IMG/VR virus record: IMGVR_UViG_2850773344_000008
Source of the DNA: a virus
Taxonomy: Duplodnaviria; Heunggongvirae; Uroviricota; Caudoviricetes
Strand: one strand, 5' to 3'
Length of the DNA: 35,473 nt
Part shown: positions 7,547 through 8,232 of the stretch, piece after piece
Layout: the number at the start of each line of letters is the position of its first letter
How positions within the stretch are numbered: the stretch's first letter is position 1
Notes under the pieces: model-generated
What the model saw: the letters and a program-made list of their open reading frames with translations, nothing else
Databases searched by the model: none
Told to the model about the DNA's origin: nothing
Made by a program: the position numbers and the translations under genes

Positions 7547-7748
7547 GTTGACCCCATTTCCCCTTAACGCCGGGGTAGCGGAACTGTTTGCTGAGAACAC
7601 CGTGCGGTGCCTTGATGAATAAAATTTAGAATAACCTAAGGAGGGTGATCAAGATTTTTGTGTAGAAAAACCTAAGTTTTTTAATGTAAAAAACACAAGT
7701 GTTTGAAAGTTTGTGCTTTTTATTACAGGGTGTGGAGAAAAAAGGGGA

Positions 7749-8156
7749 TTATTTGTTTGCGCTTCTTTTGCGAGCTTTGAGTAGTTCTTCAAAAAGTTTG
7801 TTGAAATTTTCAACTCGAGCACGCATCTCTGACAACAGGGCCTTTTGCTCTGACTCAGGCAGTGCGTCGAACAGTTGAAGTAACTCTTTTTGATCTTCTG
7901 TCAGAATGGCTGGCTGATTATCCGGGATCGGTTCGCCTGGTTGTTTATCTTCATCCCCAAAAAGAAGCCAAGTCGGTGAGCACTGAAGCGCTTGGCTCAG
8001 TGCGAATAATCTTTTCCCCGCCGGCTGTGTTTCATCTCTTTCCCATTGAGAAATTGTTACGTGAGCCACTTTGACCAGCTTACCTAATGCGGCCTGAGAC
8101 AGTTTTAATTTTTTACGCCTATGTAAGAGGCGAGCACCGAAGGTTTCGTTTTTCAT
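7749..8156 (-). CDS. HTH (XRE/CI-like) repressor, RacR-like
   Basis: 135 aa; N-terminal helix-turn-helix (LKLSQAALGKLVKVAHVTISQWERDETQP); divergent from a Cro-like gene across a repeat-rich 76-bp spacer; no peptidase S24 domain. Confidence 0.6.
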   Translation of the reverse strand: MKNETFGARLLHRRKKLKLSQAALGKLVKVAHVTISQWERDETQPAGKRLFALSQALQCSPTWLLFGDEDKQPGEPIPDNQPAILTEDQKELLQLFDALPESEQKALLSEMRARVENFNKLFEELLKARKRSANK

Positions 8157-8232
8157 ATTAGGGAATTCTAATTTTTCTTGACTTAGGTTTCTCTACGGCT
8201 TAGTTTCCTTAGGAAAATCTAAGGAGCTCGAT
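8157..8232. promoter_or_regulatory. divergent promoter/operator region between racR-like and ydaS-like genes
   Basis: CTTAGG-type half sites repeated (8183-8188, 8199-8203) and a palindrome CCTTAGGAAAATCTAAGG (8207-8224); the same hexamer recurs downstream of racR at 7635-7641 and 7671-7676. Confidence 0.4.

Follow-up and report, generated by a model that had tools for sequence, protein, structure and literature searches.

A predicted DicA/DicC-type immunity region with five putative operators, joined to a Rac-type ydaT gene, in a lambdoid prophage

Results and Discussion

Genes of the locus

The window, by which we mean the whole 35,473-nt stretch of viral DNA that was analysed, contains a divergent pair of regulatory genes with ydaT on one side and ydfA on the other. 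The repressor gene (7749..8156, minus strand) codes for a 135 amino acid protein with an N-terminal P22-C2-like helix-turn-helix (HTH); its short C-terminal part contains no peptidase domain. Divergent to it is a DicC/P22-Cro-like gene (8233..8460, plus strand) specifying 75 amino acids. The identities of the two proteins were settled by curated family models and a PDB sequence search. The repressor scored 237.3 bits against the NCBIfam DicA model NF007257 (cut-off 101), matching profile positions 1-135 of 135. It is 62% identical to DicA of E. coli K-12 over 131 amino acids, and is homologous to the N-terminal domain of P22 C2 (E = 1e-21), including the segments QAALGK and ISQWER. HTH_3 is its Pfam domain and the HTH was the only domain detected; Pfam and NCBIfam revealed no RecA-dependent self-cleavage domain in the 135 residues. 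The Cro-like protein passed the cut-offs of the NCBIfam DicC model NF007282 (158.3 bits, cut-off 130) and of Pfam P22_Cro (49.7 bits, cut-off 30.2), and is 75% identical to K-12 DicC. On these models the repressor is a member of the DicA family and its divergent partner a member of the DicC family.

The next gene on the plus strand (8437..8867) is a Rac-type ydaT, a CII analogue with a Pfam YdaT_toxin domain. In the window its frame is disrupted by a surplus G within a G-run near 8548-8554; the intact allele, present in the 99%-identical genome FDAARGOS_943, is 94% identical to Rac YdaT. A YdaT-box-like dyad (GTGATTCATGAAAATCAG, 8437-8454) lies across the ydaT ATG and matches the Rac box ATGATTCATGAAAATCAA (PMC11879457). 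A search for YdaT boxes found this as the sole copy near here, and none among the operators described below. Since only ydaT of the three genes is Rac-like, the locus is a mosaic of a DicA/DicC switch and a Rac-type ydaT.

The earlier note had read the three genes as a RacR-YdaS-YdaT module in which repeated hexamers serve as RacR operators controlling a toxic YdaS/YdaT pair. The layout (repressor, divergent small HTH protein, ydaT) is that of Rac in K-12 and its logic is analogous. The ydaT gene and its box are nearly identical in the two, and a DUF1391 gene lies downstream of the repressor in both (ydaF in Rac, ydfA here); moreover, the Cro-like protein has a sub-threshold match to Pfam YdaS_toxin (20.4 bits, cut-off 30). 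The repressor and Cro-like proteins are, however, unrelated in sequence to their Rac counterparts. BLASTP against K-12 RacR gave E = 2.9 over 5 residues and no alignment to YdaS was obtained, and both proteins instead pass the curated DicA and DicC cut-offs, so that the labels racR-like and ydaS-like do not hold. In RacR operators (TTAGGC-N3-GCCTAA; PMC9638921) TTAG and CTAA stand 7 bp apart and a GC is conserved. The motif is visible in the Rac spacer of K-12, whereas (T/A)TAGGC-N3-GCCTA(T/A) has no match in 7600-8232 even at 2 mismatches. At the sequence level the RacR reading is already refuted, and we give it next to no probability. The description of the partner as toxic is also dated; current accounts treat YdaS as a Cro-like and YdaT as a CII-like regulator (PMC11879457, PMC8630535).

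The first gene of the leftward operon is ydfA (7391..7546, minus strand), coding for a 51 amino acid protein of the Pfam DUF1391 family with 90% identity to K-12 YdfA. It is followed by a 70 amino acid ORF (7186-7398) which showed no similarity to K-12 YdfB and no Pfam or NCBIfam match. The operon is then broken, about 400 nt past ydfA, by an IS2-like element, and because of this cut the switch may be a relic that has hardly anything to regulate on its leftward side. Neither dicF nor dicB was found in the window; an Rfam scan likewise gave no DicF hit anywhere in the window and, within 7000-8300, no hit to any other known RNA. The membership of the repressor in the DicA family is unaffected, since DicF is a trait of the Qin operon and not of the family.

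Repeated motifs flanking the repressor gene

The hexamer CTTAGG/CCTAAG occurs six times in the whole window, against 10.8 expected, and is therefore not enriched overall. Four of the six copies (7635, 7671, 8182 and 8208) nevertheless fall within the two intergenic regions that flank the repressor gene (7601-7748 and 8157-8232, together 224 nt, 34-36% GC; binomial p = 2.4e-8). The earlier observation that the hexamer brackets this gene on both sides is thus borne out, as is its enrichment here relative to the rest of the window. The pentamer CTTAG/CTAAG behaves in the same manner, with 6 of 23 window copies in the intergenic regions (7636, 7672, 8182, 8199, 8208 and 8219; p = 5.8e-9). The count of "at least six copies" is correct for this pentamer, or if CCTTAG/CTAAGG is pooled with the hexamer, but not for the strict hexamer, of which the intergenic regions hold four.

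The repeats are real, but the hexamer is only half of a 14-20 bp dyad. The actual repeat unit is TTAG-N6-CTAA, present in five copies with cores at 7626, 7662, 8158, 8183 and 8209. Exact matches number three in the whole window, all of them in the intergenic regions (7626, 8158 and 8209); the sites at 7662 and 8183 carry one mismatch each, and 5 of the 14 window matches at no more than one mismatch lie inside the 224 nt. As a control, the AT-rich intergenic regions themselves were subjected to 20,000 dinucleotide-preserving shuffles. None yielded three exact sites (mean 0.015), five sites at no more than one mismatch (mean 0.20) or six pentamers (mean 0.75). The CTTAGG/CCTAAG words are accordingly read here as half-sites of predicted dyad operators whose full form is nCCTTAG-N6-CTAAGGn. 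The remaining pentamer, CTTAGT at 8199, was rejected as a half-site; it is without a palindromic partner, the 95%-identical PPompW prophage does not have it, and it is probably not part of an operator.

Predicted operators

Five putative operators were located, two on the left-hand side, past the end of the repressor gene, and three between the divergent genes. The OL1 equivalent (7623..7642, AATTTAGAATAACCTAAGGA, exact core 7626-7639) overlaps the -10 and the spacer of the leftward promoter, gave the best position weight matrix (PWM) score of the window (19.0 bits), and aligns with the dicBp-proximal site of K-12 (TTAGTCATGGCTAA) and with sites of 9 further genera. The OL2 equivalent (7659..7678, TGTGTAGAAAAACCTAAGTT, core 7662-7675 with one mismatch, 14.7 bits) lies directly upstream of the leftward -35, 36 bp from the OL1 equivalent. 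On the other side, the Oa equivalent (8155..8174, ATATTAGGGAATTCTAATTT, exact core 8158-8171, 15.9 bits) adjoins the repressor ATG and includes TAGAAT (8170-8165, minus strand), the putative -10 of the repressor's own promoter; its TTAGAAT is near-invariant across genera. The Om equivalent (8180..8199, GACTTAGGTTTCTCTACGGC, core 8183-8196 with one mismatch) is weak at 4.2 bits and sits in the spacer of the rightward promoter; only its right half-site is conserved across clades.

The Oc equivalent (8206..8225, TCCTTAGGAAAATCTAAGGA, exact core 8209-8222, 16.5 bits) has perfect 7-bp arms, TCCTTAG-N6-CTAAGGA, and aligns with K-12 Oc (TTGTTAGTCATAACTAACAA). It spans the expected transcription start and the Shine-Dalgarno sequence AAGGAG (8221-8226) of the Cro-like gene, 6 nt ahead of the ATG at 8233. 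The palindrome CCTTAGG-AAAAT-CTAAGG described previously is present within it at 8207-8224 precisely as claimed, its right arm overlapping the Shine-Dalgarno sequence.

The PWM was trained only on the sites of relatives and then run over the window. The four highest scores (14.7-19.0 bits) fell at 7623, 8206, 8155 and 7659 and the next best reached 6.0, the core information of the matrix being partly circular as its training sites were picked by the core pattern. The non-circular evidence for the operators is their positional conservation and an unsupervised alignment. Three operator-like sequences have been reported for each intergenic region of K-12 (PMC10448788); neither the pattern search nor the PWM located a third left-hand operator in the window.

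Putative promoters, probable terminator and leader

A scan of 7350-8300 for consensus sigma-70 promoters and terminators gave no promoter in either intergenic region at threshold, so the promoter positions proposed here rest on alignment to K-12 and other genera. The putative leftward early promoter, equivalent to PL or dicBp (7623..7652, minus strand), consists of a -35 TTGATC (7652-7647), an 18-nt spacer and a -10 TAAATT (7628-7623), and was placed by alignment with the dicA-ydfA spacer of K-12 (TTGACC-N17-TAATCT) and with other genera. The putative rightward promoter, equivalent to PR or dicCp (8178..8206, plus strand), has a -35 TTGACT (8178-8183), a 17-nt spacer and a -10 TAGTTT (8201-8206), and aligns with TTGACT-N17-TATCTT of K-12; TTGACTTA in this region is invariant across genera. 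TAGTTT, TAAATT and TTGATC are weak matches to promoter elements. Transcription would be expected to begin near 8213 on the plus strand and, on the minus strand, at 8157-8158 for the nearly leaderless repressor mRNA and at about 7616 for the leftward operon. The CTTAGT at 8199 overlaps the putative rightward -10.

An AT-rich inverted repeat, a hairpin followed by a U-run (7687..7722, minus strand), 3' of the repressor stop codon, was missed by the same scan. Its fold energy is -9.2 kcal/mol (z = -4.0, equalled by none of 200 shuffles), and it is a probable intrinsic terminator, parting the repressor transcript from the leftward operon. Judged by eye from the alignment, K-12 seems to have a hairpin of different sequence at the same position. 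The leader between PL and ydfA (7545-7622, minus strand) is conserved; a structured nut-like element in it was considered and dropped, as the leader folds no more stably than its shuffles (z = -0.07).

Conservation in relatives

Conservation was assessed with 11 loci (from Pantoea, Erwinia, Enterobacter, E. albertii, E. ruysiae, Buttiauxella, Citrobacter and Yersinia), K-12 Qin and 80 viral contigs, together representing 46 distinct repressor/upstream combinations from nine genera. Across this set palindromes occur at about 65-67 and at 15-16 nt upstream of the repressor ATG, the latter site being present in every related locus listed. The pair downstream of the repressor gene is also kept, 35-36 bp apart. 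Outside the palindromes the intergenic sequence diverges among relatives, and in the 95%-identical PPompW prophage the substitutions fall in the N6 centres and flanks, with none in TTAG or CTAA. The analysis shows that the sites are there, that they are not random and that their positions are kept from genus to genus.

The same comparison bears on what binds them. In Rac, YdaT binds not only its own box but also a stretch between racR and ydaS (PMC11879457), which could point to the CII-like YdaT, or another factor encoded to the right, in place of the adjacent repressor. The YdaT box, (A/T)TGATT-N6-AATCAA, is however unrelated to TTAG-N6-CTAA and occurs nearby only at 8437-8454. The palindromes are kept where the gene after dicC differs (ydfX in K-12 Qin, a 183 amino acid ORF in PPompW), and ydaT is frameshifted in the window. 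We see hardly any chance that these sites belong to YdaT or such a factor; operators of the adjacent HTH repressor, acting on the Cro-like gene and on its own promoter as the earlier note proposed, are the best explanation, given the homology to DicA, DicC and dicBp and the conserved positions.

Comparison with the Qin system of E. coli K-12

The locus resembles the cryptic prophage Qin of K-12 in gene order (including ydfA downstream), in its homologous DicA and DicC, in the operator core TTAG-N6-CTAA and its offsets from the repressor ATG, and in promoter layout, with TTGACT as the PR -35. It differs in the base before the core, with C in the present locus (CCTTAG) as against G in K-12 (TGTTAG), and in helix 2 of the repressor, SQAALGK here and TQRSLAK in K-12. 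In addition, a dyad can be recognised here in the Om equivalent (GTAG-N6-CTAA), the Oc arm reaches into the Shine-Dalgarno sequence, the gene after dicC is a Rac-type ydaT rather than ydfX, and the leftward operon, in which dicF and dicB were not found, is cut by IS2.

In K-12, DicA binds Oc in vivo and a single A-to-C change (CTAA to CTCA) abolishes binding (PMC3441716); Reg-Seq also recovered a DicA site at dicC (PMC7567609). This bears on whether the repeats here might stem from the AT-rich composition and from promoter elements that they share, and not serve as dedicated operators at all. Such an origin would fit the low GC content of the intergenic regions and the lack of window-wide over-representation of the hexamer. 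It would also fit the overlap of two half-sites with promoter hexamers (TTGACTTAG includes a -35 and CTAAAT a -10) and the unpaired, non-conserved pentamer at 8199 on a -10. Yet no local shuffle reached the observed counts, the sites are dyad-symmetric with partner half-sites that are not promoter elements, position and core are kept across genera while surrounding bases change, and the K-12 mutation lies in the homologous core. We regard composition as an extremely unlikely source of the repeats.

When Om and Oa were tested singly in the in-vivo assay, K-12 DicA bound neither (PMC3441716), and for this reason it is uncertain, by analogy, whether the present repressor occupies the sites at 8155 and 8180. 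The operators might then be functional but mainly those of DicC, the repressor effectively recognising only the perfect dyad at 8206-8225, which alone has two full TCCTTAG arms. In keeping with this, DicC overexpression represses dicA, according to Pan et al. 2019 as cited in PMC10448788, and the Cro-like YdaS of CP-933P prefers the PRM side (PMC8630535). Single-site assays, however, miss cooperative binding, and the repressor must act at the left-hand sites, given that deletion of dicA alone induces dicBp 22-fold and deletion of dicC has no effect (PMC10448788). A division of labour of this kind is, in our judgement, very improbable, and we retain the reading in which the sites serve the DicA-type repressor.

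Comparison with P22 and CP-933P

Phage P22 has a homologous C2 DNA-binding domain and a Cro of the P22_Cro Pfam family. It also has three dyad operators between the divergent genes with more at the leftward promoter beyond the repressor (OR1-3 and OL1-3 flank c2), and a nearly leaderless PRM transcript, the RM transcript beginning 4 nt before the c2 start codon. Its operators are different, 18 bp of the form AnTnAAG-N4-CTTnAnT (read from BK000583) against TTAG-N6-CTAA here, and C2 has 216 amino acids and a RecA-cleavable C-terminal domain, compared with 135 amino acids in the present repressor.

In the cryptic prophage CP-933P of E. coli O157:H7 the footprints of PaaR2 and YdaS overlap on palindromes, with half-site GTTTAGTAA, that are also of the TTAG-N6-CTAA type (PMC8630535). 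The repressor, divergent Cro-like gene and ydaT are arranged similarly, OL sites accompany a PL beyond the repressor operon, and the repressor mRNA of CP-933P is leaderless (PMC8630535); the YdaT box there is TTGATT-N6-AATCAA. The differences are that PaaR2 is described by its authors as having low similarity to DicA, that its operon carries the paaA2-parE2 toxin-antitoxin pair in place of the terminator and ydfA, and that its four palindromes are evenly spaced with T as the flanking base (TTTAG).

Proposed organization of the switch

We propose that the locus is very probably the immunity region of a lambdoid (Qin/PPompW-like) prophage, in which a DicA-type repressor and a DicC counter-repressor act through the palindromes as their operators; the points against it are that the repressor and K-12 DicA share only 62% identity and that the base flanking the core differs (C instead of G). 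The layout is lambdoid: one core is common to the three sites on one side of the repressor gene (8155-8225) and the two on the other (7623-7678). Binding of DicA to Oc, repression of dicC and dicBp and activation of dicA are carried over by analogy from K-12, in which dicC rises about 700-fold when DicA drops and dicA is activated by DicA bound at Oc (PMC3441716). Where the promoters lie, what each site does and that DicC binds the same sites we infer.

Bound at the Oc equivalent, just downstream of the PR -10, the repressor would block transcription to the right; it would also stimulate its own weak promoter, as DicA does in K-12. The Om equivalent would be a weak site inside the PR spacer. 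The Oa equivalent, predicted to hold the -10 of a promoter yielding a nearly leaderless repressor mRNA, would be the likely site of DicC repression and of negative autoregulation at high repressor levels. The left-hand sites, past the terminator hairpin, would bracket the -35 and overlap the -10 of the leftward promoter driving ydfA and the early-left operon. The suggestion in the earlier note that the repressor controls the small genes downstream of it finds support in this form, through a separate leftward promoter indicated by dicBp homology and conserved sites. DicA has no Ala-Gly site for cleavage, and its opponent in K-12 is the antirepressor Rem (PMC10448788). The present repressor, likewise of 135 amino acids, should also escape RecA-mediated cleavage. 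As it lacks a self-cleaving domain, induction would proceed via an antirepressor or a stochastic DicC-dependent flip, and not by RecA cleavage.

The flanking base and its significance

The class to which the window belongs has C before TTAG; the K-12 Qin class has G at this position, and the operators of PaaR2 in CP-933P have T. Among the 46 distinct loci this base tracks the residue following the conserved glutamine of helix 2, which in the present repressor is Ala23 behind Gln22: Ala or Ser at this position is accompanied by C on both Oc arms in 38 of 39 loci, and Arg by G on the left arm in all eight. Helix 3 (AHVTISQWER) is identical throughout. This covariation suggests a separate immunity class. 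Perhaps the flanking base even constitutes an immunity code within one operator architecture, although we hold this to be somewhat doubtful. If it were true, a single protein-DNA contact would make DicA-type prophages that share an E. coli genome heteroimmune, and one substitution could reprogram specificity.

The switch is of the ordinary, well-described lambda/P22-like kind, in a sequence flavour slightly unlike that of K-12, and the link between flanking base and helix 2 is the one modest new point; the locus opens no new mechanism. In annotation, the proper label is an immunity region of DicA/DicC type that has five operators and is joined to a ydaT and replication module of Rac type; RacR/YdaS should not be used. 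Matches to parts of the module occur in 4,080 of 5,426 complete E. coli genomes, and at least 578 relatives were found among viral contigs. Because the module is so common, the operator model (nCCTTAG-N6-CTAAGGn versus TTGTTAG-N6-CTAACAA) helps to predict cross-regulation among co-resident cryptic prophages and the derepression of toxic early-left genes such as dicB, dicF and kil.

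Genes of the immunity region

The gene at 7749–8156 (minus strand) codes for a 135 amino acid repressor of the DicA family (NCBIfam NF007257, 237 bits against a cut-off of 101), which shows 62% identity to K-12 DicA and whose N-terminal 68 residues match the DNA-binding domain of P22 C2 (E = 1e-21). The divergent gene at 8233–8460 specifies a 75 amino acid DicC/P22-Cro-like protein (NF007282, 158 bits against a cut-off of 130; Pfam P22_Cro) with 75% identity to K-12 DicC. Sequence comparison detected no similarity of either protein to K-12 RacR or YdaS. An earlier note had read the hexamer CTTAGG/CCTAAG as the operator of a RacR-like repressor in a RacR-YdaS-YdaT arrangement; this was right in kind, but the family was wrongly named.

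Rightward, the Cro-like gene adjoins a Rac-type ydaT, the intact allele of which, in a 99%-identical genome (FDAARGOS_943), is 94% identical to Rac YdaT, with Rac-like ydaU and ydaV coming next. Since DicA/DicC-type switch genes are thus joined to Rac-type ones, the locus is, judged by its sequence, a mosaic of a Qin-type immunity module and a Rac-type cII-analogue/replication module. The junction lies just upstream of a YdaT-box-like dyad, GTGATTCATGAAAATCAG, which spans the ydaT start codon (8437–8454) and differs from the footprinted Rac YdaT-box, ATGATTCATGAAAATCAA, only in the two outermost bases; in Rac, a reverse (PRE-like) promoter for the repressor is activated through this box. The ydaT-like gene itself (8444–8867) is divided into ORFs 8444–8629 and 8562–8867 by a single additional G in the run near 8548–8554 (G7, versus G6 in FDAARGOS_943 and K-12 Rac), which marks either a genuine pseudogene or a sequencing error in the homopolymer.

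Repeated sites flanking the repressor gene

CTTAGG/CCTAAG is rarer than expected in the 35,473-nt window (6 copies against 10.8), and four of the six, at 7635, 7671, 8182 and 8208, fall within the two intergenic regions bordering the repressor gene (7601–7748 and 8157–8232, 224 nt; binomial p = 2.4e-8), which bears out the clustering on both sides described in the earlier note. Its count of six copies or more is correct for the pentamer CTTAG/CTAAG, 6 of whose 23 window copies are inside these regions (p = 5.8e-9), but not for the hexamer. Repeat finding placed the hexamers in longer units of 16–22 nt, related to one another as direct and inverted repeats across the gene, and what they share is the dyad TTAG-N6-CTAA. 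The dyad is found without mismatch at 7626, 8158 and 8209 and nowhere else in the window, and with one mismatch at 7662 and 8183. Because both intergenic regions are AT-rich (34–36% GC), local dinucleotide-preserving shuffles were used as the control; 0 of 20,000 reached three exact sites, five sites with up to one mismatch, or six pentamers. The palindrome CCTTAGG-N5-CTAAGG was found exactly where it had been placed, at 8207–8224, its right arm overlapping the Shine-Dalgarno sequence AAGGAG (8221–8226) of the gene starting at 8233. The pentamer at 8199, which coincides in part with the probable rightward -10, is unlikely to be a half-site of an operator: it has no dyad partner and is absent from a 95%-identical prophage (PPompW).

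A scan of reference genomes yielded 11 loci, in Pantoea, Erwinia, Enterobacter, E. albertii, E. ruysiae, Buttiauxella, two Citrobacter, Yersinia, E. coli and Shigella. In those with an intact gene, and in K-12 Qin, nearly all TTAG-N6-CTAA matches within approximately 5.4 kb occupy fixed positions: 65–66 nt and 15–16 nt upstream of the repressor ATG, about 40 nt upstream in the window's own clade, and, downstream of the gene, as a pair spaced 35–36 bp. When the upstream spacers were aligned without supervision, the TTAG and TAA blocks of the distal site proved invariant, a TAAGT(C/A)AA block complementary to the -35 TTGACTTA proved conserved (TAAGT invariant), and TTAGAAT...CTAA adjoining the ATG near-invariant, the spacer being variable elsewhere. 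Downstream, two dyads bracket a conserved TTG(A/C) -35 and merge into a CTAA(A/T)(T/C)T -10. A position weight matrix trained on the relatives only gave 7623, 8206, 8155 and 7659 as the top four window sites (14.7–19.0 bits; next best 6.0); with no more than 4.2 bits, the 8180 site is a weak one. Among viral contigs at least 578 relatives were found, 80 of which gave 46 distinct repressor/upstream combinations, all with identical layout. The sites are non-random and conserved, the allele is widespread, deposited prophage records already annotate it as dicA/dicC, and the window locus joins a well-known kind of system.

Comparison with studied switches

The Qin operator Oc of K-12, TTGTTAGTCATAACTAACAA, aligns with the site at 8206–8225. 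Oc is bound by DicA in vivo, titrates DicA on a multicopy plasmid, loses binding through a single A-to-C change (CTAA to CTCA), and is the site at which DicA activates dicA; a tenfold decrease in DicA raises dicC about 700-fold, and Om and Oa, each tested alone, were not bound (Yun et al., PMC3441716). Each of the two K-12 intergenic regions holds three operator-like sequences, the leftward promoter dicBp is induced 22-fold by dicA deletion, the switch flips spontaneously in a DicC-dependent manner, and repression is relieved by the antirepressor Rem, not RecA (Ragunathan et al., PMC10448788). Reg-Seq recovered the DicA site at the dicC promoter (PMC7567609).

In the P22 record OR1-3 and OL1-3 flank c2, and the RM transcript begins 4 nt before its start codon. 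PaaR2 and the Cro-like YdaS of CP-933P give footprints over palindromes with the half-site GTTTAGTAA, that is, TTAG-N6-CTAA as in the window; this prophage also has OL sites at a PL, and its repressor mRNA is leaderless (PMC8630535). The RacR operator, TTAGGC-N3-GCCTAA (PMC9638921), is visible in the K-12 Rac spacer and absent around the window repressor gene. TTAG/CTAA outer half-sites are common to the DicA-type, PaaR2 and RacR repressors, which are unrelated or distantly related, with a gap of 6 bp in the first two versus 7 bp with a conserved GC in RacR (K-12 Rac sequence L014, 2780–2840); convergence or shared HTH ancestry may be responsible.

Proposed mechanism

Binding and regulatory outcomes are taken from K-12; where the promoters lie, what each site does and that DicC binds the same sites are inferred. 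The alignments place a putative rightward promoter at -35 TTGACT (8178–8183) and -10 TAGTTT (8201–8206), with a 17-nt spacer that would contain the weak 8180–8199 site (Om equivalent). The perfect dyad 8206–8225 would begin at the final -10 base and cover the expected start site and ribosome-binding site, so that occupancy by the repressor would block the Cro-like gene. The 8155–8174 site (Oa equivalent) contains TAGAAT (8170–8165, minus strand), ending 8 nt before the repressor ATG, which predicts a nearly leaderless mRNA; it would be a natural target for shut-off by DicC and for negative autoregulation. The poor -35 (GAGAAA) of the putative repressor promoter is consistent with a need for activation. 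The leftward promoter, likewise placed by alignment, would comprise -35 TTGATC (7652–7647), an 18-nt spacer and -10 TAAATT (7628–7623), with the 7623–7642 dyad overlapping the -10 and that at 7659–7678 just upstream of the -35. Left of the repressor gene, a hairpin followed by a U-run (7722–7687, minus strand; -9.2 kcal/mol, z = -4.0) would halt repressor transcripts ahead of this promoter.

Leftward region and remainder of the prophage

Between the leftward promoter and ydfA (7391–7546; 90% identical to K-12 YdfA) lies a leader (7555–7612, minus strand), CACCGCACGGTGTTCTCAGCAAACAGTTCCGCTACCCCGGCGTTAAGGGG, which is almost identical to that of K-12 Qin, although its neighbouring operators are different, and which can be recognised in other genera. 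Two small hairpins occur in it, but the fold of the leader is no better than that of shuffles (z = -0.07). Beyond ydfA, a 70 amino acid ORF (7186–7398, minus strand) has no Pfam or NCBIfam match and does not resemble K-12 YdfB; in the 99%-identical genome, only a partial hypothetical protein is annotated there.

A Rha-family regulatory gene (4324–5289, minus strand) carries in its 5' part Rfam matches to C4 antisense RNA and isrK (75.7 and 61.5 bits; 4933–5020 and 5045–5121, minus strand). Such an arrangement is characteristic of antirepressor modules under sRNA control, and the module may be the inducer of the non-cleavable repressor. Between it and the leftward promoter and ydfA stands one copy (5671–6944) of an IS2-like element, missing at that position in two otherwise 99%-identical genomes; the second copy is at 24633–25906, each having 136 and 301 amino acid ORFs. 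Together with IS3-family ORF pairs at 2675–3831 and 31729–32885 (100 and 272 amino acids) and 15872–17001 (100 and 263 amino acids), these suggest a heavily IS-ridden, Shigella-like cryptic prophage. Also present are a sok antitoxin RNA of a hokD-like hok/sok module (12219–12394) and four clustered tRNA genes (14750–15056).

A possible immunity specificity

The window and its clade have C before the core, (T/C)CCTTAG...CTAAGGA, whereas the clade of K-12, E. albertii, Citrobacter and Yersinia has G, TTGTTAG...CTAACAA; the hexamer CTTAGG is precisely the half-site specific to the window's clade. In the set of 46 distinct loci, this base varies with the residue that follows the Gln of helix 2: with SQA, SQS or TQS, 38 of 39 loci have C on both arms of Oc, and with TQR, G is found on the left arm in all eight and on both arms in seven, although, as the loci form essentially two clades, one evolutionary event may account for the pattern. 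Helix 3 is identical in most of the loci. The pattern hints at a separate immunity specificity but does not establish it, and such a one-base immunity code would be the sole mildly new reading of a locus that otherwise belongs to a well-known kind of system.
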